Notes under the pieces: model-generated
Seen by the model: only the letters and a program-made list of their open reading frames with translations
Database searches by the model: none
Told to the model about the DNA's origin: nothing
Position numbers and translations under genes: made by a program
Source of the DNA: Minisyncoccota bacterium
GTDB lineage: Bacteria; Patescibacteriota; Minisyncoccia; Phycocordibacterales; Phycocordibacteraceae
Direction of reading: 5' to 3'
Assembly (NCBI GenBank): GCA_018062765.1
Contig: JAGORR010000001.1
Location: 78,638-142,637 of the forward strand
DNA: 64,000 bases
In this document: in pieces, positions 4,945-30,556 of the stretch
How positions within the stretch are numbered: position 1 is the stretch's first letter
Layout of the letters: each line of letters begins with the position of its first letter

Positions 4945-5577
4945 TCATTTTGTAAGCCTTATCGGGCTATCGAGCTCGCCGATGTTGAATGAGCGGTAGA
5001 GAAGCTCGATGATTTCCTCAGTGCCTAGGGGTACTGCGCGAATACCGGCCGAGTTTATGGCGCCTGCAGCCAGGGACATGCGCTGCTCGAGCTGGATGCG
5101 ATGCTCAGCGAATGCGTCGTTCCCTTCCCCGCCAGACCCGGATGACGGAGTGCGCTGGAGGAACGCGAGCGCACTCTTCACTTCCGAACCCGAGCCAGGT
5201 GCCAAAGGAACGACGATGTAGAATGTCTTCGTCATGATGTTTGCTTGATCAGCGAACGCGCGGACGAATTCCATGTATTCGCGTACCTGTATCTTCATGA
5301 GCTCGGTTTCCTGCTTATCTGTGCGCTCCTGAAGGAGTGCTAGGTACGGCCGGATATCCATGCGGCGGGAGTGCACAACAAGCTCCACGGAAAAATCGAG
5401 CGAATTGAGGAAGGTCTGGAATCCGCCGATGACCGCCCGCTGCTCGTCGTCGGATTTCAAGGAGAAGTTCACTGATGAGCACATGAGTATGCCCCGATAC
5501 GTGCCGTCCTTAAGGATGATGACCCCATTACGGACCTCCTTTACTGGAACAAACGACTGAGATGCTTTAGGCGCCAT
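4945..5577 (-). CDS. hypothetical protein, T4SS-associated
   Basis: 210 aa with an 11-nt overlap with the PrgI-like gene. The N-terminal pattern VPVKEVRNGVIILKDGTYRGILMCSSVNFSLKSDDEQ recalls the pre-ATPase region of Gram-positive VirB4 proteins (recollection, not a search). Confidence 0.6.
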   Translation of the reverse strand: MAPKASQSFVPVKEVRNGVIILKDGTYRGILMCSSVNFSLKSDDEQRAVIGGFQTFLNSLDFSVELVVHSRRMDIRPYLALLQERTDKQETELMKIQVREYMEFVRAFADQANIMTKTFYIVVPLAPGSGSEVKSALAFLQRTPSSGSGGEGNDAFAEHRIQLEQRMSLAAGAINSAGIRAVPLGTEEIIELLYRSFNIGELDSPIRLTK

Positions 5578-5986
5578 GGTTTTCTTCCTGCGTGCGGTCC
5601 TTTATATCGAGGGACCATGCTAGGTCCCGAATCTTCGAGGACGACAGCCCGAGCTTCTGGCGGGCTTCTTCTGGGGCGACGACAGCTTTGGGTGCTTCTT
5701 GCGCCTTATCCTCCTTACGCCATACGTAGAGTTTCCCGCCAAACAGGTACGACACCTGTGCCTCGACAATCTCAACGAACGGCTTGTTGTTGACGCGATA
5801 GAACGCGAGGGCGCCAGAGAGTGCGCCGACGGGAAGTGCCACGATGAGGAACCCAATCATGGGAAGGTAGGCAAACGCGATGACGCAGATACCGATGCCT
5901 CCGGCAAGGTATATGAACTGCTTCAGCGTGAATGGTCCAAATATCTTCCCTTCCACTTCGAGAAACTGCGGTACTTGGTACTCCAT
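5567..5986 (-). CDS. PrgI-like (VirB3-like) T4SS membrane protein
   Basis: 139 aa: MEYQVPQFLEVEGKIFGPFTLKQFIYL followed by two adjacent TM helices. This is the PrgI-family pattern, in the prgI-like position upstream of VirB4. Confidence 0.65.
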   Translation of the reverse strand: MEYQVPQFLEVEGKIFGPFTLKQFIYLAGGIGICVIAFAYLPMIGFLIVALPVGALSGALAFYRVNNKPFVEIVEAQVSYLFGGKLYVWRKEDKAQEAPKAVVAPEEARQKLGLSSSKIRDLAWSLDIKDRTQEENHGA

Positions 5987-6026
5987 CGCTCTATAGTATA
6001 CCGCCCGAGCGCCGAGTTTTGCGTGG

Positions 6027-6635
6027 TTATTGTGACGTACCCTCGTCTATGGGTTCACGATACGGGTCGCGAGCATAATTTTTTGGTACAGGAGCCGGAA
6101 GTGGCGCGATAGACGCAGGTGTTGTGACTTCACGCTCTGTTCGAGGGAGGCGGGGCTCGAAGACTGCTGGAGGTGTCACCGGCTCAGGGCGCGGCGCGGG
6201 AGGAGCAACAGGAGCAGAAGTTATCACAGGTGCAAGCGGCGCGGCTGGAGCGATTGGAGCAGTGGGTGGAGGAGTGGTGCCAAGAGGTGCAGGCACGTCG
6301 GTGAGTGGCGCGCGCGCAGGCTTCCCGGCCTCGCTCCGCATCTTCTCGTGGAGGGGCTTGAATATCGCGTCATTAAGTTCCTTGGCGATGAGAGAGGCTT
6401 TCAGATTAGATATGCCCATCTGCTCCATCTCCTGTATGAGCTGTGCAGGATTGATGAATCCGGACAACATAAGTCCAATGGACTCATCCAAGTCGCCTAC
6501 GACGTCTATGTGTAACTGGTACTTTGCACCTATGCGGCGCACTGCTGGCCCTAATTCACCGCTCGCGAGGTACTCACGAACAGAAAGAGGAAGACCGCGA
6601 TATGCCCGCAAAAGTTCTTCGTGTGGAATCTTCAT
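6027..6635 (-). CDS. hypothetical protein with Pro/Ala-rich C-terminus
   Basis: 202 aa with a helical N-terminal domain followed by PPPTAPIAPAAPLAPV... No family recognised. Confidence 0.55.
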   Translation of the reverse strand: MKIPHEELLRAYRGLPLSVREYLASGELGPAVRRIGAKYQLHIDVVGDLDESIGLMLSGFINPAQLIQEMEQMGISNLKASLIAKELNDAIFKPLHEKMRSEAGKPARAPLTDVPAPLGTTPPPTAPIAPAAPLAPVITSAPVAPPAPRPEPVTPPAVFEPRLPRTEREVTTPASIAPLPAPVPKNYARDPYREPIDEGTSQ

Positions 6636-6641
6636 AGAGAG

Positions 6642-8933
6642 CTATAGTCCTGCAAAATCTTTCGGAAGCCCGAACAGACCGCGATCGAAATCATTACTCG
6701 TAAGATAATTATTGATACCTTCTATTTGCTTGGCGGAAAGTACGCCCGCAGCCTTACCTCGTCGAAGTTCAGCGATAACTTCCGCAGGGTCTGAGAACTT
6801 ACCCTCCGCCATACCTCGTTGCAAGTCGACTTGCGTGAAAGAATGCACGACAGCAGGTCGGGTATAGTCTTTAGCGCTTAGTTTGACCTTTGCCTTAGGC
6901 CCAAGACCGCTCGCCTGAGTCCTGATATTCACCTGTGATGCGGCTGATCCGTCGTCTTTCTCTATTAAGACGCGTAATTTACCAAAGTCCGATGAGTCCT
7001 TAACTGCGCGGCGTTGGTCATTGGTCAAGGCCTCACTCTTTTCAAGTGCCTCCAACTGTTCGTCGGAGAATTGGCCAGCAGCAAGCGCGTCTTCGAATGT
7101 CGCCGCGTTAAGCTTCGCAAACTCTGCCATATCCTTTGATGACCAGCGTTGTACCTCCTTCTTATCGTTTGTACCAATGGCCGCCACGAGTTTTTGGAAT
7201 CGCCCGCCTGCAACTTCGTCCTTAACGCTCTGATCGACCTTGTCGGTCTTCTGAATGTCGATGAACCGTTCAGTGCTGAGGTATTTCGCCGCCTCCTGTT
7301 TATCTGCATTTTTGAGTCTTTTGACGTACTCGAACGTGTCTCCCTGGTTCAGGCTCTGCAGGGTCTTCGAATACTCTTTCTCGGCTAGCATCCGCTTTGC
7401 ATCATCAGGCGCATCTTTTATGCTCTTAAGCTGCGTGCCAAGAGTGCTGAACGTGTGATCGCGATGAACTTCATGCGCGCGATGGTCACGCGCATGTTTC
7501 TCGTCATCCAGAGAAACACCAGCTACTTTTATTTTCTCGCGCTTATCGAGCGCGGATTGGATATTGGCGTCCGTCGTCGCAAGTATCTTGCTTCCTCTAA
7601 ACGCGGCGCCTATGCCAAGGCCATTATATGCCTTATCTGCCGCCCACATTCCAGCCTTCGCGCCATACCTAAGCCCCGTATTCCCTATCGCACGAGAAGG
7701 TTTTGATATTGGAGAGAGCGCTGCGCCGGTAAGACGTCGGCTCATGCCGATGGAGAAGCTCGCGCCGACCGCACCCATCTGTTTGGCGACAATGATGGAC
7801 GCCATAAGCATTCCCATGGAGATAACGAAGCCGAGTATCATTCGGGTCGTATTGGCCCAACCGGTGCCGCTGACGAGCGCGCTGAAATCGCGACTCTGTC
7901 CGATGATGAGCTGCGGCGAGGTCATCAGCGTCACACTGATGAGGAGGAACAGGAGGACAATAGGAGCAGTCGCGCTTTGGGCGATGAGCATGTGCCACCA
8001 CTGCTTCGCGCGCCCCTCTAGGGATGGTATGACCAGTCCAACGAAGCCGAGAGGGGACAGGATCATGAGGAATATGAGTACGAGGAAGCGCGCGATGAGC
8101 ATAAACGCGAGCGCAAGCATTACGAACGTAGCGACGATGAACAGGAGCGAGCCTAGTATGAGCGCAGCGAACCAGTTGTTCTCCAGCACCGTATTCTTAA
8201 GCTGCCCCGTCTGAAGCGTAGTTGCATCATAGAAATTCTGAAGTCCGACCATCTCCATAATGGCGTTCGAGACGCCCTCATTAGATGGCGACCAGCTTTC
8301 CCCCGGATCCGCGCCGAGCGCTTGCCTGCCCTCTCCGGGCTTCACCATGACGGAGTAGAACTGATAGGCGAACACGTTGCCAACGTCGATGATGGCGCGT
8401 GCAGCGAAGAGGCTGAAATTCACGGTAACGGCGACCAGGATGAGCTTCACGAGCATCTTCTTCGCGTTGTAACTCTGTACGTCGAGTATCGTCGCGACGC
8501 CGATAGCGACGAATCCGAATATGAGCGCAATGTTACCAAGATCGCGTAGCACCCTCCATGCATCGAGTATGCCGGGCATGCTATTCACGAAATCCCCCAT
8601 CTTAACGACTGTGTAGTAGACGGACGCGTTAAGCATCACGCCGGCGACTCCGGCGAGGTACGCGAACAGGGATAGCATCTTATACCCTATGGGTCCGTAG
8701 ATATCGTCTCCGGTCGTATGACTTCCAAAATTAGCGTTCGCGTCAGGGGTCCCTGCTTGCGGGGCAGCAGGAGGAGGACGATCCGGAAGCGTCAGATCAG
8801 GGGGCGAGTCCGGGGTCACTTCAGGAGGTGGAGGTGTCTGGGCAAATGCGAGACTAGGAAGCAGGAGCGAAAGCGAAAGCAGCAGGATGATACCTGCAGC
8901 CAGCCATGTCCTACCTGATACTCGGGAAGCCAT
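6642..8933 (-). CDS. large polytopic membrane protein, VirB6/TrbL-like by topology and position
   Basis: 763 aa: signal-like N-terminus, Pro-rich linker, roughly 7-9 hydrophobic helices (residues ~85-400) and a long charged soluble C-terminus. The family assignment is inference. Confidence 0.55.
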   Translation of the reverse strand: MASRVSGRTWLAAGIILLLSLSLLLPSLAFAQTPPPPEVTPDSPPDLTLPDRPPPAAPQAGTPDANANFGSHTTGDDIYGPIGYKMLSLFAYLAGVAGVMLNASVYYTVVKMGDFVNSMPGILDAWRVLRDLGNIALIFGFVAIGVATILDVQSYNAKKMLVKLILVAVTVNFSLFAARAIIDVGNVFAYQFYSVMVKPGEGRQALGADPGESWSPSNEGVSNAIMEMVGLQNFYDATTLQTGQLKNTVLENNWFAALILGSLLFIVATFVMLALAFMLIARFLVLIFLMILSPLGFVGLVIPSLEGRAKQWWHMLIAQSATAPIVLLFLLISVTLMTSPQLIIGQSRDFSALVSGTGWANTTRMILGFVISMGMLMASIIVAKQMGAVGASFSIGMSRRLTGAALSPISKPSRAIGNTGLRYGAKAGMWAADKAYNGLGIGAAFRGSKILATTDANIQSALDKREKIKVAGVSLDDEKHARDHRAHEVHRDHTFSTLGTQLKSIKDAPDDAKRMLAEKEYSKTLQSLNQGDTFEYVKRLKNADKQEAAKYLSTERFIDIQKTDKVDQSVKDEVAGGRFQKLVAAIGTNDKKEVQRWSSKDMAEFAKLNAATFEDALAAGQFSDEQLEALEKSEALTNDQRRAVKDSSDFGKLRVLIEKDDGSAASQVNIRTQASGLGPKAKVKLSAKDYTRPAVVHSFTQVDLQRGMAEGKFSDPAEVIAELRRGKAAGVLSAKQIEGINNYLTSNDFDRGLFGLPKDFAGL

Positions 8934-23269: not shown

Positions 23270-24733
23270 CTAGCAAACGTTGTGCTTCTCGAGGATGCGC
23301 CGTACTTCCAACTCCTCCTCAATCTCGCGACGTTTTTTGCCGGACTCCCCCATGTCCTTTAGCTCACTGTCCTTTAGAGCAAGTAATTCCCCTGCCCTAC
23401 TATCCATATACTCCTCCGTATTCTTCTCAGGATCGATAAGTACCTCCTCCAAGAGTGCATTTAAAGTCCACCCAATGCGCGGACCAGGTTCCACGTGAAA
23501 GCGGCTCATAAGACGTCTACCGTCAGTCTTAAGCATTGCTACGGATATCGGGTCGCGAAGCGCCTGTTCAACCATGGCCTTGTACTTACGGAAACGAAAA
23601 GGCTGCTCTTTAGGGCGGCCAGTACCTATGCGGTCACATATCCTAAGGTTCAACAGATCCCAAATATTCTCCTCCCCTACGTTCACAATCATCCGGCGGA
23701 CAGCGGACAGCGATATTTGGTCAGGGTCGGAGAAGAACATGTGCCAGCGTACTAGTTTCACAACTTTTGAGATAGTTTCCCGTGAAAACCGGAGGTCCTC
23801 TAGAGCTTTGCGTGTTACACGTGAACCAACTACCTCGTGTCCGTGGAAAGTCCAGTCCTGTTTCTCTTCGGACCAACGCCTAGTGTCTGGCTTAGCGATA
23901 TCGTGGAATAGGGCAGAAAGGCGTATATCGAAGCCCCATCCCTTGTCTGCGGCGTGCTGCATGCTTCGCATAAGATGCTCGAACACGTCGTAGCTGTGTG
24001 CCTGATTTTGCGCCACGCCGACGGACTGCGGCAAATCAGGAACTATATGTGGCAACAAACCGAGCTGCAGAGCCAAGGTGAATGCCATCATTGGCTGGTC
24101 AGACATGAGGATTCGGGTAAGTTCATCCCGAACCCTTTCACGTGAAATAGCCCCTAGATTGCTAGCTTTTTCGCTTATTGCAGCCGCAGTTTCGCCATCT
24201 AGGACAAATCCAAGCTCTGCGACGAGGCGTATAGCCCGCATAAGGCGCAGTCCGTCTTCCTCAAATCGGATGCTAGGTACTCCTACGGCCCGGAGAACCT
24301 TGGCTTTCAGGTCTACTTGTCCTTTATAGGGGTCTACGATGTGTCCTTTAGAGTCGTCCAGGGCTATGGCGTTCACGGTGAAGTCCCGGCGAGCGAGGTC
24401 ATCCTCGAGGCTCTCGCCGAATATGACTTCGTCCGGCCGGCGCTTATCGGAGTACCCGGTCTCGGTTCGATATGGGGTCACCTCGACAACTGCCGTTGTC
24501 TCGTCCTCAGACCCGGTCTTTACCCCGACTGTCCCGAACTCGTTTTCGTAAAAGGAGTCGGGGAAGACTCTTTGGATGTCTCCTGGCTTTGCGTTGGTGG
24601 TGACATCCCAATCCTTGGGCTTTCGATTGAGCAATAGATCACGTACACAGCCGCCCACCAGGTAGGCCTCGAAGCCTGCATTGCGCAAGTCCCCGGCGAC
24701 CTTCTCTACTACGTTTGGAATAGGGAAGTGCAT
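23270..24733 (-). CDS. cca: CCA-adding tRNA nucleotidyltransferase with HD domain
   Basis: GGCVRDLLLNRKPKDWDVTT head domain and FHDIAKP HD motif. Confidence 0.9.
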   Translation of the reverse strand: MHFPIPNVVEKVAGDLRNAGFEAYLVGGCVRDLLLNRKPKDWDVTTNAKPGDIQRVFPDSFYENEFGTVGVKTGSEDETTAVVEVTPYRTETGYSDKRRPDEVIFGESLEDDLARRDFTVNAIALDDSKGHIVDPYKGQVDLKAKVLRAVGVPSIRFEEDGLRLMRAIRLVAELGFVLDGETAAAISEKASNLGAISRERVRDELTRILMSDQPMMAFTLALQLGLLPHIVPDLPQSVGVAQNQAHSYDVFEHLMRSMQHAADKGWGFDIRLSALFHDIAKPDTRRWSEEKQDWTFHGHEVVGSRVTRKALEDLRFSRETISKVVKLVRWHMFFSDPDQISLSAVRRMIVNVGEENIWDLLNLRICDRIGTGRPKEQPFRFRKYKAMVEQALRDPISVAMLKTDGRRLMSRFHVEPGPRIGWTLNALLEEVLIDPEKNTEEYMDSRAGELLALKDSELKDMGESGKKRREIEEELEVRRILEKHNVC

Positions 24734-24799: not shown

Positions 24800-25462
24800 A
24801 TGAAAGAGAAAGTTCAGCATAAGAAATACGCGACTGATTTGCGACTAGCAGGGAGCACCTATTCGGAGATACTCGCGCAAGTCCCTGTTTCGCGTGGCAC
24901 ATTATCAGCGTGGCTTAGTGATGTTCCTCTACCGGAGAACGTGGTAAAGCACCTCTCCGCCAATCGGCGAGCGAGGGTCAGTCAGGCAAGAAGAAGGGAA
25001 GCGACGGTCCGGAAAGCGGCAGCGATAGTTCGCCGCGGATTCGCTGAAAAAGGTGCAAAAAAGGAATTCGAAAGACACTCGAAGGAACCCTTTTTCCTGG
25101 CCGGTCTCGGTCTTTATCTTGGTGGCGGGACCTTTGGGAAGGCATCCTTCTCGTACATGTCCGGGGAGGAGCGCCAGATAGCGCTAATGGTCCGCTGGGC
25201 TAAGGAATACCTTGCCCACGAGAGTCGTATAGCGCTCCGACTCTATCTGCCGCCCTCCATGGACCTCGGATCTGCCCGTGTGCACTGGTCCAAGGCCACC
25301 GGGCTCCCTGCAGCAGCCTTCAAGAAGGCGGTGATGACGAAGGAAAGGGCCAGAAAACCTAGTAATTACGCGGGTATTGCCCGATTGGAGCTTACGGGTG
25401 GCAGGGCAGCGCTTCGTGTGCGCGTGTGGCTGGATATGCTTGTTGTGCGCTATGCGGAATAA
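24800..25462 (+). CDS. HTH protein with degenerate LAGLIDADG-like domain
   Basis: N-terminal YSEILAQVPVSRGTLSAWL (HTH), then FFLAGLGLYLGGGTFGK ... VHWSKATGLPAAAFKK. Resembles a homing-endonuclease-like family I recall from Actinobacteria/CPR. Start set at ATG 24800. Confidence 0.55.
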   Translation: MKEKVQHKKYATDLRLAGSTYSEILAQVPVSRGTLSAWLSDVPLPENVVKHLSANRRARVSQARRREATVRKAAAIVRRGFAEKGAKKEFERHSKEPFFLAGLGLYLGGGTFGKASFSYMSGEERQIALMVRWAKEYLAHESRIALRLYLPPSMDLGSARVHWSKATGLPAAAFKKAVMTKERARKPSNYAGIARLELTGGRAALRVRVWLDMLVVRYAE

Positions 25463-25481
25463 AGCTAGTGTTTACCTCAGG

Positions 25482-25553
25482 CTCCGATAGTGAAATGGAT
25501 ATCACATCAGTCTTCGGAACTGACGTTCCAGGTTCGAATCCTGGTCGGAGCAC
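25482..25553 (+). tRNA. tRNA-Arg (anticodon TCG), no encoded CCA
   Basis: Hand fold: acceptor GCTCCGA/TCGGAGC, D GTGA/TCAC, anticodon stem TCAGT/ACTGA with loop CTTCGGA, T arm CCAGG-TTCGAAT-CCTGG, discriminator A. Confidence 0.9.
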
Positions 25554-25555
25554 AG

Positions 25556-25747
25556 AAAGCAGCAAACCCGAGCTTACGCTTGGGTTTGCTGCTTTCTGGC
25601 TCAAGGCCAGGATTCGAAAGACGGAGTCGGTATACAAGCGAGCGAAGCGAGGCTTGAGACGATGAAAGCTGCCGGGGGTCGCTTTCATGGGTCGCGGAAA
25701 TCCCGCGTAGAGGGATTATCCGTGACCGAATCCTGGTCGGAGCACAC
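25556..25747 (+). other. tRNA-Arg-trailing unit: 15-bp hairpin plus 5'-truncated tRNA-Arg copy with 120-nt T-loop
   Basis: Hairpin GAAAGCAGCAAACCC/GGGTTTGCTGCTTTC (25556-25597). CCAGG-ATTCGAAAG at 25608. Exact 20-nt repeat of the tRNA 3' end (25536-25555) at 25728-25747. Confidence 0.8.
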
Positions 25748-25793
25748 TAAGAATTGAAGAAAAGGCATAGCTATGGGAATATAGAGCCCGTAG

Positions 25794-25864
25794 CGGCTAT
25801 GGTTTAGTGGTAGAACGCGTCCTTGCCAAGGACGAGTCGGGAGTTCGATTCTCCCTAGCCGCAC
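25794..25864 (+). tRNA. tRNA-Gly (anticodon GCC), no encoded CCA
   Basis: Acceptor GCGGCTA/TAGCCGC, anticodon stem CGTCC/GGACG with loop TTGCCAA, T arm GGGAG-TTCGATT-CTCCC. Confidence 0.9.
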
Positions 25865-25865
25865 T

Positions 25866-25990
25866 AAGAAAAGCGAAGCTTTGCGTGTACAGACGAGGGA
25901 GGATCGAAGGCCGGAGCGCGGCGGCGCGAGGCGAGGTCGCGGCCATTTTCAGAAGAAAATGAGCTGTGACCGATTCTCCCTAGCCGCACC
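25866..25990 (+). other. tRNA-Gly-trailing unit: 5'-truncated tRNA-Gly copy with 74-nt T-loop
   Basis: GACGA-GGGAG-GATCGAAGG at 25893. Exact 19-nt repeat of the tRNA 3' end (25847-25865) at 25972-25990, here followed by CCA. Confidence 0.8.
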
Positions 25991-25996
25991 AGAGCG

Positions 25997-26028
25997 AAAA
26001 GCGCCCGGAAGGGCGCTTTTCGTTTATA
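25997..26028 (+). terminator. intrinsic terminator of the tRNA transcription unit
   Basis: GAAAAGCGCCC-ggaa-GGGCGCTTTTC followed by GTTTAT. Confidence 0.7.
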
Positions 26029-26085
26029 GACAATAGGGGATAACTACCTACCTCTCCCTTGAACGCATAATTTCTAGGCCATTTC

Positions 26086-26114
26086 TTGGTGTTGACTTCA
26101 TGAAATGGTATAAT
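26086..26114 (+). promoter_or_regulatory. sigma70-type promoter with extended -10
   Basis: TTGGTG, 17-nt spacer, TGgTATAAT (26106-26114). Confidence 0.5.
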
Positions 26115-26120
26115 CCTAGA

Positions 26121-26355
26121 GCCTCGCAAGGGGTGGCAGGTATGGTCAGGTATCGGGACGAAAGTCGTTGCGTAAGCACAGCTCTAGTGGTCGGTACTTG
26201 TAAGGTCGAAAGACCTCGAGTACCTGCCAGTGGAGCTGTTTTCGTGGGCCCGCGGAACCAGTTTGAGCCCTCCACGGGTTAGCGATGAACCTGCACCTCG
26301 AATTTCGCGGTGTCGCTGGTCGACAAGATACCAGCATCGTAATCTTGGTCAAAAC
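26121..26355 (+). ncRNA. candidate structured leader/ncRNA (family unknown)
   Basis: 8-bp closing helix GGCAGGTA (26135-42) / TACCTGCC (26221-28) enclosing two GAAA-tetraloop hairpins (GAC-GAAA-GTC, AGGTC-GAAA-GACCT). Further nested helices (GTGGA..GGGC..GCCC-TCCAC; AGCGA..TCGCT). No credible ORF. Confidence 0.3.
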
Positions 26356-26475
26356 ATGACTAAGACGATTACGAGGAGCGCGAAGACAGGTCGCTTCGTA
26401 CCGGCAAGGCAGGCGATCACTCGCCCCGCTACGACGGTACGGGAGACAATCTTCGTCCCTCGCAAAAAGAAGTAA
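26356..26475 (+). CDS. 39-aa basic protein (KTGRFV...TTV.E type)
   Basis: MTKTITRSAKTGRFVPARQAITRPATTVRETIFVPRKKK. Resembles small conserved hypothetical proteins I recall from actinobacterial mobile DNA. Below the track cutoff as a stand-alone ORF. Confidence 0.4.
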   Translation: MTKTITRSAKTGRFVPARQAITRPATTVRETIFVPRKKK

Positions 26476-26551
26476 GCCCCCTAGCTAAACGCTAGAGAGC
26501 TTGCTTCGTAAGGAAGCAAAAGCGCTCACAGCAGGTGTGGGTGCTTTTGCT

Positions 26552-26628
26552 TAAGGACATGGTACCACAGGTGTCCTTTAGACCACCAACCACACCGATA
26601 GGCAGGGGATAATCATGTAATTTATCCC
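26552..26628. promoter_or_regulatory. two palindromes upstream of the NYN-Zn gene (operator-like)
   Basis: TTAAGGACA-N12-TGTCCTTTA (26551-26580) and GGGGATAA-N9-TTATCCC (26605-26628). Confidence 0.45.
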
Positions 26629-26759
26629 TAGAAAGCATAATCGATTGAATAAAATCAAAGGATCTCAGGAATATTATCGGCTTATGCAAGGCACATTTTA
26701 TCGCTGTCCACACCTGCATTGTACGTTCACGGAATAAGGTGTAGCGTTGAAGTAAAGAT

Positions 26760-27371
26760 ATGAAGCGGTACGCATTTATAGATGTCGAAAATACGGCCAC
26801 GACAGCCGAAGATATGCTTGGCTTTGTCGTTGATTGGTCAAAAGTGGCTGATTTCCTCAAGAATGTGAAAAGTTGTACAGAAGTGTTCTACTACACGGCT
26901 ATAGAGACTGGTGATGCCCAGAAGGCGGCAGAGTTCGAGGCGATCGATAAAACTGCCTGCTGCGTTGTTAGGGCGAAACAAAAGATGCTCTATAAGCGTA
27001 AGGACAAGTATCTTTCTTTCACGTGCTCAAAGTGCGGGGAACCCGGCAATAAAAGCATTGACATGGGGTACAACGTCAAAGGTAACTGCGATGTTGAATT
27101 AACGGTGGATGCTCTCGAGCATGGAGAGAAAGATAACGAATTTTACATATTCACGGGCGACGGTGATTTCGAGTACCTAGCTATAAAGCTTATGGAGCGG
27201 GGCGTTAAGGTCGTGTTTGTTTCTCACGCAAAAGTGATTCAGAGGGCTGGTCAGCCCTATGGACGGTATTCAAAAAAGCTTAGAGATCTTGTTGCTGCCA
27301 ACCCGACCCACCTCTCTTTCCAAGAACTAGATAATTGGAAGAAGAAATTTGAGCGCGTAATTGTGCCGTAA
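26760..27371 (+). CDS. NYN/LabA-like domain protein with inserted CxxC zinc-ribbon-like segment
   Basis: YAFIDVENT ... FTGDGDFEYLAIKLMERG (NYN), with inserted FTCSKCGEPGNKSIDMGYNVKGNC. Confidence 0.7.
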   Translation: MKRYAFIDVENTATTAEDMLGFVVDWSKVADFLKNVKSCTEVFYYTAIETGDAQKAAEFEAIDKTACCVVRAKQKMLYKRKDKYLSFTCSKCGEPGNKSIDMGYNVKGNCDVELTVDALEHGEKDNEFYIFTGDGDFEYLAIKLMERGVKVVFVSHAKVIQRAGQPYGRYSKKLRDLVAANPTHLSFQELDNWKKKFERVIVP

Positions 27372-27562
27372 ATACGCCGTATAAATACGAAAACGCCGCG
27401 AAGCGCGGCGCCTTCTAAGGACTCCCTCAGTATACTCAGGACCCATGAGGTGTCAATTAAGGGTCAAGGGGTCTTTCTAATAACCTGTTGATAGCTGATT
27501 TAAGAAGAATTTAAGATAGTTTCAAGTATAATTTTCACAAATGGATCAACCCGAGTTTCTTT

Positions 27563-28450
27563 CTATACTTTCGAGAGCAATACGGTTCCGAGGAGCGCAG
27601 AAAACCGCTGACTGTCGCTGTGTCGGTTGTTCCAATGGAACGAATACGCATCTAGATACCCCTGAAGGTGTCGCTTCGACACCACCTTATACGTCCCCCG
27701 AAGAGAGCGCTTCACGTGCGCCCAATACGCCTCAATAGTGTTTATGTAGATTGGGCCTCGCGCCCATTCTTTCTTTGAGTGATTCACCATGTATCGCTCG
27801 TAGCCTATAGCTACATTGTCTAGGGTCTTAGTAGCGTCAGTCATGAGCGCGGTGCCTTCCTCCTCAACGTTTTCCCGAAGAAACCGGCCGTGGGTATCTG
27901 CGCCTATGTCGGGTACGACCTTGGTGCGTACCTCGCCGTTTCGCTGTACCGCGCCTATAACCGGGGACTTAGCCCTAATGTTCCTGCTCTGGTGCATATT
28001 GTCCTTCCCGCCGTCACCCTTGCCGCCCATATAGGTGCTATCCACCTCGACAACCCCCGACAGCTTCTTGGGAGTCTGTTTCCCGAGGGATTCGCGGATC
28101 AGTTTCAGCATTCGCCACGCCGTCTTATAGGTCACTTCAAGCTGTCGCTCCATCTCCTTAGCTGAAATGCCGCTCTTGGCGTTAGAAAAGACCCACAGGG
28201 CATGGAACCAGAGGGAAAGGGGAGTATCTGACTTATGGAAGATCGTGCCTGCTGTAGGGGCTATCTGGAACCTACACTTGGAGCATTGATACTGTTTCCG
28301 GCCTGAAATGCGCCTGTAGGTACCACCACAGGAGCACTCCCGGCTGTGGAGGGAATCGAAAATGAAGTCCAGACAGACCGCGTCGGTCGGGAAATCACGT
28401 TTTAGGGAAGATAGGCCGTATTTACTCATTATTCTCACTCTATCGGACAT
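27563..28450 (-). mobile_element. IS1595-family transposase gene (element ends not defined)
   Basis: N-terminal Zn ribbon CSCGGTYRRISGRKQYQCSKCRF and an ISXO2-like DDE region (VVEVDSTYMGG, LMTDATKTLD, NTIEAYWAHVKR). Terminal inverted repeats not found by eye. Confidence 0.75.
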
Positions 28451-28474
28451 GGATTATGTTGTCAAGGGATATCG

Positions 28475-28508
28475 GGGGATAACTAAGGGGACATGTGGAT
28501 AAAGGACA
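28475..28508. repeat. GGGGATAACTAAGGGGACATGTGGATAAAGGACA motif cluster
   Basis: Contains GGGGATAA, a TAAGGGGACA variant and GGATAAAGGACA. Lies between the transposase start and yraN. Confidence 0.7.
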
Positions 28509-28577
28509 GCGTCCAAGATGAACGGATTATGATGAGTCTTAAGAAAAGCTAGTAAATAAGCCGTTTTTCTAAACTCC

Positions 28578-28973
28578 ATGAATCTCGAGAAGGCCACAAA
28601 GAAGGAAATCGGTGATTATGGTGAAAGGGCCGTCGTCCGAGAGCTCGAGAGGAATGGCTACAGGCTAGTTGGTAGGAATATCGCACGAAAGACAGGAGAA
28701 ATAGACGTGCTAATGCGAAAGAGCGATACCCTCCACTTTATCGAAGTTAAGGCGCTCTCATGTGAGGAGTTGCCGGATCTTGAAGCGGTAAACGATCGCT
28801 ATGACCCCTCTGCAAACCTTCATGAGGCGAAGGTACGAAAAGTCGCCCGGACAGCTGAGTGGATAGTCGCAGAAAAGGAGTGGGAAGGGGATTGGCAGGT
28901 TGATGGCGCCCTAGTATGGCTCCGGCTGCGCGATGGAGTCGCCAAGGTCCTCCATCTGCCGCAAATCGTCTAG
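28578..28973 (+). CDS. yraN: YraN-family (UPF0102) endonuclease-like protein
   Basis: GDYGERAVVRELERNGYRLVGRN ... GEIDVLMRK ... FIEVKA. Confidence 0.8.
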   Translation: MNLEKATKKEIGDYGERAVVRELERNGYRLVGRNIARKTGEIDVLMRKSDTLHFIEVKALSCEELPDLEAVNDRYDPSANLHEAKVRKVARTAEWIVAEKEWEGDWQVDGALVWLRLRDGVAKVLHLPQIV

Positions 28974-29074
28974 CAATGCTAGGATGGCCCATATAGGACG
29001 TTGGCCTATGTGTATGGGCGGTGAGCTAGGGTCATTATGTGCCGGAGTAGCTTGGGTGGGTTAAATCATTTGGT

Positions 29075-29148
29075 CGGGCCGTCGTATACCGGTAGTACGC
29101 TTGGTTTGGGACCAAGATGACCGGGTTCGATTCCCGGCGGCCCGACCA
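29075..29148 (+). tRNA. tRNA-Pro (anticodon TGG) with encoded CCA
   Basis: Acceptor CGGGCCG/CGGCCCG, anticodon stem CTTGG/CCAAG with loop TTTGGGA, T arm CCGGG-TTCGATT-CCCGG, ACCA end. Flanked by a perfect 14-bp leader/trailer complement (29061-29074 / 29145-29158). Confidence 0.85.
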
Positions 29149-29191
29149 AATGATTTAACGGCTCTCTGGGAGAGAGCCAAGGTCCGGAGGA

Positions 29192-29324
29192 AAGATGACC
29201 GGGACGACCCCTTACAGGGGCGGTATACCTTTCGGATATTTTGCATCGCAAGCTCGCAAATTATCTCGAAAGGTCTTGCGAACGCTCCAAGCATTCGCGT
29301 TCTCACCCGGCGGCCCGACCAAAT
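29192..29324 (+). other. tRNA-Pro-trailing unit: 5'-truncated tRNA-Pro copy with 102-nt T-loop
   Basis: AAGATGACCGGG (tRNA 29114-29125) is repeated at 29192-29203. CCCGGCGGCCCGACCAAAT (29133-29151) is repeated exactly at 29306-29324. Confidence 0.8.
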
Positions 29325-29383
29325 TTTTCGTGATGCGCACTGAATCGATTCTCCGGGGGAGAACCGTATGACTGGGTTAATGC

Positions 29384-29411
29384 AAAAAAGATCCGCGAAC
29401 GGATCTTTTTT
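29384..29411. terminator. bidirectional intrinsic terminator
   Basis: AAAAAAGATCCG-cgaa-CGGATCTTTTTT. Confidence 0.75.
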
Positions 29412-29434
29412 GCAATTGTAATTCCAGCGGTCCC

Positions 29435-30484
29435 CTAATCACTCGTCGCTTCAATAAGTATCTCCCGCAACGCTTTCGCCCTCGCCGCAAACGCATCTGC
29501 AAGATTCGGAAGTGGCGCGCTTAGGAGGTATTGCGAAAGACTCATGCCAGCGTCGAGCTCGAAGTTCTTCCTGATATGACGAGGTGTGATGGCGCGCACT
29601 TGGCGAGATGAGAGATCTGCTTCCGCCGAGCTTGTGGTGATGAGTCCGACCATTTCCCCGGAAAGCGAAGCGACAGCACCCCCCGAAGAACCTTCCTGCG
29701 CCGTATCGCTTCCAGACACTGACAGCAAATCGATAGTATTCTCGCCAAACGTATAAACCTTCTCAATCTCTCCGCCATCAACAATGAGTGGTAATGCATT
29801 CTGGATGAGTTCGCTCCCAGCAAACTCAGCGCCGTACGCTGCGAGTACTACGGTGTCGCCTGTGCGTGCATCCGTATCAGCAAGTGGAAGTGAAGGAAAT
29901 GAGGAGGGAAGTGGTGTGCCAGAAATTGTTCCGGTGATGTACAGGAGCGCAAAATCACTCTCACCGGTCCCAGTTGGTGCTGCGTCTGAAAGAGTCGCTT
30001 GATTAGCGGTTATCCAGTGCGTCGATACGTACAGGGGATCTGCCGTGTATGTCGCAACAGCAGGACTTCCAACTCGTACAGAACAACGAATGCTATTTGG
30101 TTTCGGATAATCGCGCAGGATAAAGTACTGTCCGATGTGAGCGGCGGTAAGGATGACACCGCGCGAATCGATGAAGACGCCGCTTCCAGAAATTGATTTG
30201 AATGGACTACCGTCCGTCGTGCAGAGAATATTCACCGCAGCATTTCCGGCAAGTCGAACCGCAGCGTCCAATTTTCGCGTATCCAGAGGTGCGCCCGCGT
30301 CTGCGACTGCTGCGGGCTGCGGAGGAGCTTCGATCAGTGTTGCGCCAGGAAGTGTCGTAGTCGCGAGTGGCGTCGCTTCCTCTATGACGATAGTCGTTGG
30401 AGAGCGAAAACCTGTGGTTGCTATGGCGATAACAGCAAACGCAAGGAGGCCTGCGCCCGCGTAGGAGATCCAGTCACGCTTCAT
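29435..30484 (-). CDS. membrane-anchored trypsin-like serine protease
   Basis: N-terminal TM helix. Catalytic-triad contexts TAAHI, DFALL and GSSGGAV. Confidence 0.7.
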   Translation of the reverse strand: MKRDWISYAGAGLLAFAVIAIATTGFRSPTTIVIEEATPLATTTLPGATLIEAPPQPAAVADAGAPLDTRKLDAAVRLAGNAAVNILCTTDGSPFKSISGSGVFIDSRGVILTAAHIGQYFILRDYPKPNSIRCSVRVGSPAVATYTADPLYVSTHWITANQATLSDAAPTGTGESDFALLYITGTISGTPLPSSFPSLPLADTDARTGDTVVLAAYGAEFAGSELIQNALPLIVDGGEIEKVYTFGENTIDLLSVSGSDTAQEGSSGGAVASLSGEMVGLITTSSAEADLSSRQVRAITPRHIRKNFELDAGMSLSQYLLSAPLPNLADAFAARAKALREILIEATSD

Positions 30485-30485
30485 G

Positions 30486-30556
30486 TGCGGGATAGGAGAA
30501 TCGAACTCCTGCTAGCAGTTTGGAAAACTGCAGTTCTACCATTAAACTAATCCCGC
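30486..30556 (-). tRNA. tRNA-Gly (anticodon TCC), no encoded CCA
   Basis: Reverse complement folds as GCGGGAT..ATCCCGC, anticodon stem GCAGT/ACTGC with loop TTTCCAA, T arm AGGAG-TTCGATT-CTCCT. Confidence 0.9.

Follow-up and report, generated by a model that had tools for sequence, protein, structure and literature searches.

Plant mitochondrial t-elements and mascRNA-type ends place a mimic of the transfer RNA (tRNA) acceptor and T arm in a longer transcript, and RNase P, RNase Z or the CCA-adding enzyme could be drawn to it there. Integrative elements that target tRNA and transfer-messenger RNA (tmRNA) genes, among them phages, islands and tycheposon-type arrays, keep the gene intact through element-borne sequence and displace its original 3′ end; the attP core of phage Ms6 lies in the T loop of tRNA-Ala (PMC1762012), and tandem ssrA islands occur in Dehalococcoides (PMC3146451). 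The theta ribozymes (minimal ones akin to that of hepatitis delta virus, HDV) that follow phage tRNAs are small structured RNAs on the 3′ side of a tRNA, co-transcribed with it (PMC10879173), and group I introns form non-coding insertions in tRNA genes of Patescibacteria (PMC13011429). In bacterial ribosomal RNA (rRNA) operons, long leader-trailer helices are cut by RNase III (PMC10250234). Here we describe a tRNA-Pro(UGG) gene from a 64,000-nt stretch of a Minisyncoccota bacterium of the Patescibacteria (contig JAGORR010000001.1, positions 78,638 to 142,637; hereafter the window). The tRNA lies within a long leader/trailer helix, and its trailer carries a second copy of the tRNA 3′ end behind an insert in the place of the T loop. 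We give about an even chance to the view that this is a tRNA-Pro with a processing stem followed by a decayed member of a family of small tRNA-mimicking insertions, two unrelated features at one gene.

The likeness to tRNA-targeting integrative elements lies in the intact gene and displaced 3′ end, in tandem arrays and in filled and empty sites among relatives; as in these cases, the geometry is the one expected when DNA enters the T loop by a Campbell-type or site-specific event (PMC1762012, PMC3146451). Unlike them, the inserted elements measure 110-190 bp, have no open reading frame (ORF), integrase, cargo or other gene, and are not found in viral contigs. Where known elements have att sites bound by proteins on the DNA, these have a covarying RNA structure, specific to one strand, that imitates the T arm and sometimes also the acceptor stem. 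Theta ribozymes share the size, position and co-transcription, but the present elements show no HDV-like fold or Rfam match, stand 4-120 nt from the tRNA, carry a copy of its 3′ end and belong to chromosomes of Patescibacteria, not to phages. The patescibacterial group I introns come from the same phylum, but they sit in the anticodon loop (35/36), are ribozymes of 200+ nt detected by RF00028 and have no duplicated exon. Compared with t-elements and mascRNA-type ends, the T loop is replaced here by a three-way junction, the neighbouring tRNA is copied exactly and the acceptor 5′ strand is mostly missing. With the rRNA-operon helices the tRNA-Pro helix shares a long flank duplex whose ~22 bp would suit a double-strand RNase; unlike them it flanks a single tRNA, is continuous with the acceptor stem and occurs at about one fifth of related loci, and its cleavage is a prediction.

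The tRNA-Pro(UGG) gene occupies 29075-29148 of the plus strand, with its CCA encoded at 29146-29148. ARAGORN calls it Pro(tgg), and Rfam model RF00005 matches 29075-29145 with 58.7 bits against a threshold of 29, as befits a canonical bacterial tRNA. The repeats that an initial annotation, made from the letters alone, had reported in its trailer are all exact and in place. Within the window AAGATGACCGGG (12 nt) occurs only at 29114 and 29192, and CCCGGCGGCCCGACCAAAT (19 nt) only at 29133 and 29306. On the plus strand the trailer thus holds an exact copy of 29114-29125 (anticodon-stem end, variable loop and T-stem 5′ strand) at 29192-29203, which in the folds is the 5′ strand of a helix, P1; a 102-nt insert at the T-loop position (29204-29305) that folds into three hairpins (29208-29220, 29227-29274 and ~29272-29307); and, at 29306-29324, an exact repeat of 29133-29151 (3′ strands of T stem and acceptor stem, A73, CCA and AAT). 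A 19-nt exact repeat running from the T loop to the 3′ end beside an intact tRNA-Pro is the direct repeat typical of tRNA-targeting elements, and by our own arithmetic the chance of a 19-mer being repeated within 200 nt is p ~1e-9. Folding of the region, which the initial annotation had proposed, strongly beats shuffled sequences (29050-29420, z = -8.96). An intrinsic terminator is predicted on the plus strand at 29381-29414, where one had been noted at 29384-29411, and none between tRNA-Pro and the second 3′ copy; the tRNA and its trailer would be co-transcribed as a unit closed by this terminator.

The same architecture had been claimed for tRNA-Arg(TCG) (25481-25553) and tRNA-Gly(GCC) (25793-25864, a gene without CCA), both on the plus strand, and it is seen there, with repeats at 25536/25728 and 25847/25972. 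The Arg trailer (25554-25747, plus strand) consists of a spacer hairpin, the P1 5′ strand (25605-25616), a module with an enlarged P2 helix and the tRNA 3′-end copy (25728-25746). The Gly(GCC) trailer (25865-25990, plus strand) has a canonical module, of the class 1 defined below, within a T-arm mimic, and then the tRNA 3′-end copy, here with CCA. All three trailers fold alike, a T-stem-5′-like strand and the copied T-stem 3′ strand closing two to three hairpins. The architecture is real and non-random and occurs three times in the window. The Pro locus is a third instance of it, as had been proposed, but not of one sequence family: when the Gly-type core was made into a covariance model, R1, this model recovered the Gly trailer (25893-25987, 89.4 bits) and the Arg trailer (25668-25743, 28.7 bits) and gave no match on the plus strand of the Pro trailer at E up to 10. 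Little weight falls on CGGTATAC, said to be common to the Pro and Arg trailers, because the two strands of the window together contain it 7 times, where ~2 would be expected, and part of this 8-mer is the palindrome GTATAC. The observation at tRNA-Pro is confirmed, and the interpretation first put on it is supported in part.

Alignment of the three window trailers with MAFFT was uninformative until their core was recognised through L002, a syntenic relative with 86% identity (L numbers denote loci from other genomes and metagenomes). The common core runs from (A/G)GCCGGAG through a variable hairpin, GAGGCGGGGUCGCGG and a covarying stem (loop AGCA) to CYGUGACC. The sequence that immediately follows repeats the upstream tRNA: the 3′ part of its T loop, the 3′ strands of T stem and acceptor stem, and N73. 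We define a class-1 module as AGCCGGAG - P2 - GAGGCGGGGUCGCGG - P3 - CYGUGACC inside helix P1, with ~65 nt conserved. A scan for the core with one genome per species gave >119 loci, ~65 of them in Patescibacteria (Paceibacterota, Saccharibacteria, Adler-, Kaiser-, Nomura-, Harrison- and Taylorbacteria); the remaining loci, GC-rich coding matches lacking the upstream half of the motif, were set aside. For about 55 of 66 copies there is a tRNA gene on the same strand 45-130 nt upstream, and at least 14 tRNA identities are represented (Gly, Ala, Val, Leu, Ser, Asp, Glu, Arg, Cys, Trp, Ile, Tyr, Met and Pro). In 30/66 copies the module is followed by a repeat of the upstream tRNA from C56 to the 3′ end, identical at >=16/18 positions. 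A second flavour, common after tRNA-Arg, has a hairpin that abuts the tRNA end and a short 3′ repeat or none. R1 finds further copies inside other tRNA operons, and module variants group by lineage, not by tRNA.

The core structure was derived from an alignment of 54 sequences. The three-way junction is paired in 86.7% of alignment cells, compared with 72% after shuffling, and double-change cells number 263 versus 89; the upper part of P3 contains seven pairs that covary. P3 also has an invariant G.U pair, and a second position alternates between G.U and G-C; this identifies the tRNA sense strand as the functional one. Rfam 15, searched at E up to 10 on 25400-26100 and 28950-29450, has no family for the module, returning only tRNAs beyond sub-threshold matches, and at gathering thresholds the whole window gives nothing but tRNAs. 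The literature on tRNA-linked motifs in Patescibacteria yielded only the anticodon-loop group I introns and, from phages, the theta ribozymes; judged by sequence and structure, this would be a family of structured tRNA-mimicking elements for which we found no earlier description. Several known RNAs were tried as identifications and dropped. HDV-like, hammerhead and k-turn readings of the module fail by eye, as strands and junctions misfit; group I intron, HDV-like, hammerhead, twister, hatchet and pistol models have no match in the same two regions at E up to 10; and for tmRNA, permuted forms included, ARAGORN finds none and RF04321 scores 19.3 bits against a threshold of 47. A related module, class 2 (GGGAAUCGAA-CAGCGGAGGGGGUC-GGGGAACC..GGUUCCCC-GUGUCGGAGG-hairpin-AGCGAGCG..GUGAG), takes the T-loop position in the tRNA-Pro trailers of L231, L239, L242, L147, L185 and L218, in tandem in two of these loci. 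An extra hairpin with the conserved loop GCGAAUACNUGGAGC lies directly 5′ of the module in the spacers of L010, L025, L079, L120 and L124, and in L120 it makes a four-way junction.

In unconstrained folds of the trailers of L234 (Pro), L002 (Pro), L090 (Leu) and L034 the mimicry goes further, with a 7-bp acceptor stem followed by N73. This acceptor stem stacks on the T-stem mimic or joins it via a hairpin, and the module stands in the place of the T loop, so that a minihelix results. L019 (Asp) has the acceptor 5′ strand and the hairpin in its sequence, but its unconstrained fold lacks the minihelix architecture. An acceptor 5′ strand with 7/7 complementarity is present in 5/44 copies, against 2.4% by chance, and is absent from most.

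Which of the two 3′ ends is the original one can be read from empty sites. The empty tRNA-Gly site of L127 scores 21 with the flank of copy 2 in the window and 18 with that in L002, compared with 6 for the copy-1 flanks; the flank following copy 2 (CCAGAG...GCGCC-loop-GGCGCTTTT) is common to the window, L002 and L127. The flanks after the Gly gene itself in the window and L002 resemble each other and not the empty L127. At another tRNA-Pro locus, L234, copy 2 is followed by CAGAGAACGTCTCC, which is the native trailer of the empty L220 (14/14) and nearly that of L143 (12/14). The native flank thus lies beside the distal repeat for both Gly (L127) and Pro (L234). Moreover, in three cases (window Gly, L002 Pro and L029 Glu) the downstream copy has CCA and the gene does not, and the reverse is never seen. 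The flank matches and this distribution of CCA show the downstream copy to be the original 3′ end. Everything from the tail that the gene now has, through the spacer and the P1 5′ strand, to the module is accordingly inserted DNA. The trailing "pseudo-3′-half" of the initial annotation is then a displaced original 3′ end beside inserted DNA and no designed feature. That annotation had named repeats left by a recently excised element as evidence against its reading, which comes close to this outcome, except that the element was inserted and not excised.

Tandem arrays are found in L049, L078 and L185/L218, and module classes can be mixed at one tRNA. Direct repeats run past the tRNA end in L020 (>90 nt) and in L229 and L144 (14-16 nt). 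In L020 the direct repeat spans a terminator and a promoter, and 2.5 kb of small ORFs (5080-7700, including a 183-aa protein and a 110-aa Cys-rich protein) lie between tRNA-Ala and the module; there is no ORF of recombinase size among them (longest 183 aa; no domain search was run). Apparent second copies of the tRNA-Pro 3′ end at 76-102 nt spacing in metagenomes proved mostly to be ordinary tandem tRNA-Pro isoacceptor genes, and were excluded.

We suggest that a small (~110-190 bp), protein-less DNA recombines into a tRNA gene within the segment from the T loop to the 3′ end and carries its own copy of that segment. As the element would bring this copy with it, the tRNA gene would stay intact, and the original 3′ end with its native flank would be pushed downstream, the pseudo-3′-half being the right-hand end of the insertion. 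The element would encode a mimic of the "top half" of tRNA, with P1 for the T arm and the three-way junction for the T loop, to which younger copies may add the acceptor stem, N73 and sometimes CCA. At the window Pro locus, 29306-29324 would by analogy be the displaced original 3′ end of tRNA-Pro. Observation covers the repeats, the existence of the family with its structure, strand and link to tRNAs, the filled/empty polarity seen at two other loci, and the fact that the helix described below recurs; the recombination mechanism, the enzyme acting on the helix, and a role of the junction RNA for the element or the cell, are what we propose from them.

Several observations weigh against this proposal. 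The comparison of polarity was made on Gly and on L234, not on the Pro locus of the window, for which blastn with the leader, trailer and downstream flank against all fetched loci gave no close empty allele. No recombinase, transposase or reverse transcriptase was found alongside the element, and the nearby XerC-like gene is syntenic even in relatives without trailers. No free or excised form was seen, and the core pattern has 0 matches in 2.9 million viral contigs (IMG/VR). The module structure has been under long-term purifying selection, even where the 3′ copy has decayed, which is unlike a dead scar. Where the tRNA has changed between orthologous loci, by about five substitutions at Arg (window versus L125) and one at Gly (window versus L002/L125), copy 2 and the P1 5′ strand have changed with it, a tracking that calls for gene conversion, re-insertion or function. 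Finally, the leader of the window tRNA-Pro pairs perfectly with the copy-1 trailer, which insertion would make element-borne. The tracking of tRNA substitutions, the selection on structure and the leader pairing keep a functional tRNA-mimic RNA, a self-propagating RNA and, with less likelihood, a guide RNA in play.

The second feature of the locus is this pairing of the leader. TTAAATCATTTGGT (29061-29074) is the reverse complement of 29145-29158, a match with a probability of ~4e-9 for a 14-nt complement at a fixed position (own arithmetic). The helix had been described as a perfect one of 21 bp; it is perfect, and its length is 22 bp. Its 5′ arm (29060-29081, plus strand), also paired in the minimum free energy fold, comprises 15 leader nt and the 7-nt acceptor 5′ strand, and its 3′ arm (29138-29159, plus strand) the acceptor 3′ strand, A73, CCA and 11 trailer nt. 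We surveyed 105 distinct metagenomic tRNA-Pro(TGG) loci with an identical 3′ half. At least 13 extra leader/trailer pairs, one mismatch allowed, are found in 22 of these (21%), against 1.2% of shuffled pairings; the extra pairing adds either 0-3 or 13-18 bp to the 7-bp acceptor stem, a bimodal distribution, and the helix sequences vary from locus to locus with compensatory changes, G.U pairs included. Because of this excess, the bimodal lengths and the differing sequences with G.U pairs, we regard the helix as a selected RNA feature of a subset of tRNA-Pro genes. Only L234 and the window have both a long helix and a trailer-family insert: the helix is independent of the trailer family, and two unrelated features meet here.

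The initial annotation had likened the helix to an RNase III-type or bulge-helix-bulge (BHB)-like stem. A BHB has two 3-nt bulges around a 4-bp helix, whereas the 22-bp helix is perfect and without bulges, which leaves no place for the BHB comparison. The RNase III comparison holds in part. The sequences on either side of a stable RNA pair here over roughly two turns of helix; such a duplex, with 22 bp here and 13-18 bp beyond the acceptor stem elsewhere, recurs with covariation in about one fifth of related loci and fits a processing stem, but leader/trailer complementarity, expected to be conserved in relatives, is missing in the syntenic L002 and L003. Most likely the helix is a pre-tRNA processing stem, and its total length of 21-23 bp would suit a double-strand RNase. 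Bacterial RNase P is reported to be inhibited when the leader pairs with RCCA (PMC9433436); on that account an earlier cut or unwinding would be needed at tRNA-Pro. As the leader/trailer duplex would lengthen the acceptor stem to 22 bp and bury A73 and CCA, a double-strand-specific RNase (of RNase III type) may have to cut, or the helix be unwound, before RNase P and 3′ trimming could act. An RNase III signature motif was not found in the 64-kb window, a result that counts against such an enzyme but is uninformative, since the window is ~10% of the genome.

Of the trailer behind this helix, only part resembles the family. The spacer hairpin GGCTCTCT-GGG-AGAGAGCC (29160-29178, plus strand) lacks a U tract and is not called as a terminator. 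At 29180-29186 (plus strand) follows AGGTCCG, a degenerate acceptor-5′-like strand matched by eye to CGGGCCG of the L002 trailer; the pairing of AGGTCCG-GAG-GAAAGATG in the window with CGGGCCG-CAG-CAAGATG in L002 was made by eye, and MAFFT leaves this stretch unaligned. When the L002 trailer is folded without constraints, CGGGCCG pairs to close an acceptor stem of 7 bp. Within the 102-nt insert only the last hairpin (29272-29307) aligns with P3 (GGUCGCGG...CYGUGACC) of L002; blastn finds no homologue of the insert in 1.6 Mb of fetched sequence, and the best nhmmer match is marginal (E = 0.012). From its sequence the Pro insert appears to be an orphan or decayed core, its junction having probably decayed or been replaced. 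Further on, GAATCG, a hairpin and ATGACTGGG (29342-29376, plus strand), kept in L002 by MAFFT alignment, lie between the putative displaced tRNA end and the terminator and look like the truncated start of a second tandem element, with another copy of the variable loop and T-stem 5′ strand. The tRNA-Pro position in other genomes holds a class-1 module in L002 and L234, class 2 in L231, L239, L242, L147, L185 and L218, and other inserts in L229 and L144.

The trailers come and go among syntenic relatives, which share the trypsin-like peptidase, UPF0102, helix-turn-helix-like ORF, CCA-adding enzyme, exonuclease III and Xer-like recombinase genes. Conservation of the trailer, on which the initial annotation had staked its reading, is found in the orthologous tRNA-Pro of L002 and not in the relative at 79% identity. 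L002 has trailers at all three tRNAs, its tRNA-Pro lacking an encoded CCA, and L125 (85% identity) has the Arg and Gly trailers; in L003-L005 (79% identity) the same tRNAs are present and the trailers all absent. In L125 (1-160) tRNA-Gly(GCC) with its trailer is inverted relative to tRNA-Arg and the gene encodes CCA; the inversion points to local rearrangement around the elements. The contigs of L001, L125 and L127 end inside the tRNA-Arg/Gly/Pro region, and short-read assembly may fail at the repeated modules and copied tRNA ends.

ARAGORN and Rfam find four tRNAs in the window. The fourth, tRNA-Gly(TCC) (30485-30556, minus strand), differs from the other three in having no such trailer architecture; its end lies one base from the ATG of the trypsin-like peptidase ORF (29435-30484). 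The gene for the CCA-adding enzyme (23270-24733, minus strand) encodes a protein 100% identical to one from "Candidatus Pacebacteria", the group in which all close homologues occur; the genome is one of the Patescibacteria (Paceibacterota/Parcubacteria). Some 2.5 kb of the window (26030-28570) are absent from the syntenic relatives; this region contains a promoter-like TTGACT..TATAAT (~26092-26122), a GC-rich structured stretch without Rfam match (26125-26260), a second NYN-domain ORF (26760-27371) and an IS1595-family transposase (27563-28450, minus strand).

The best-surviving alternative, in our view unlikely but well short of negligible, is that the trailer is a tRNA-like small RNA useful to the host, with a minihelix handle processed by RNase P, RNase Z and the CCA-adding enzyme. 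The junction would then be a functional domain, or a processing or punctuation signal in tRNA operons resembling the t-elements of plant mitochondria, and the match to the tRNA would be selected rather than a relic of insertion. Complete minihelices indeed fold at several loci, but most copies lack the acceptor 5′ strand. From Saccharibacteria to Paceibacterota the module is kept in sequence and structure, with covariation, even in variants without any 3′ copy, and modules lie between the tRNAs of single operons; yet a close relative with the same tRNAs has none, and terminator-like hairpins often separate tRNA and module. Differences in the tRNA between orthologous loci are mirrored in copy 2 and P1, as a selected match would require, but in about half of the copies the 3′ copy is decayed or missing, the direct repeat sometimes extends well beyond the mature tRNA end, and the Pro copy of the window has lost the conserved core.

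It is improbable that the module is a guide-RNA scaffold in the manner of TnpB/Cas12 omega-RNA or CRISPR RNA (crRNA), with an 18-20-nt 3′ guide against tRNA genes. GGTT(C) of the T loop would serve as protospacer- or transposon-adjacent motif (PAM/TAM), and a nuclease, transposase or repressor would be directed to tRNA genes. The scaffold is followed by ~18-20 nt identical to the tRNA gene, starting at C56/G57 directly after GGTT, this guide-like part follows its target between species, and type V-K CRISPR-associated transposons (CASTs) use a short crRNA and a GTN PAM to reach tRNA genes. However, the first ~10 nt of the supposed guide are paired in P1, with covariation, where a scaffold would leave a guide free; half of the copies keep the module without a matching "guide"; no effector gene adjoins any copy; and the intact upstream gene would be a self-target. 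To our knowledge, moreover, a ~65-nt scaffold is far below the size of known omega-RNAs.

More improbable still is an intron-like unit, in which the 5′ part of the tRNA pairs with either 3′ copy and the stretch from the first copy through the module is removed from read-through transcripts by self-splicing or by cleavage and ligation, the module being a candidate ribozyme that reverse-splices into T loops. The two folds are symmetrical and near in energy, the P1 5′ strand ends in GAA, complementary to the universal U54-U55-C56 of a real T loop, and the invariant G.U pair and conserved junction nucleotides would suit a catalytic RNA. Self-splicing tRNA introns are abundant in Patescibacteria (PMC13011429), and ribozymes occur directly 3′ of phage tRNAs (PMC10879173). 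But no Rfam ribozyme or intron matches at E up to 10, the upstream tRNA gene is complete and so has no need of splicing, the 22-bp helix locks the window tRNA-Pro onto copy 1, and decayed 3′ copies could yield no tRNA. Chance or assembly artefact can be dismissed: although relatives' contigs tend to break here, the repeats are exact and far above chance, and the same architecture recurs in independent NCBI, JGI and Logan assemblies and in >60 species-level genomes.

Patescibacteria make up a large share of bacterial diversity and have tiny genomes with little space for junk, yet in them a conserved RNA copies the T arm and tail of its neighbouring tRNA. We put forward tentatively, as a possibility rather than an expectation, that the junction in its minihelix mimic is a new Patescibacteria-specific functional RNA, either a protein-less mobile RNA or ribozyme or a plug-in of the tRNA machinery. 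In the mobile version a candidate RNA or ribozyme would recognise T arms by base pairing and spread through tRNA genes; in the other, an RNA that imitates tRNA would engage the enzymes with which these reduced symbionts process tRNAs, add CCA or charge them. The 21-23-bp duplex adds a bacterial tRNA-Pro on which RNase P would be expected to fail unless a different nuclease has cut first. A functional RNA would mean an unnamed family whose structure is clear. Mobile elements, on the other hand, would amount to insertions without a protein that spare an essential gene by carrying its end; they could explain the contig breaks in this region and might affect the annotation of tRNA ends in metagenome-assembled genomes of Patescibacteria.

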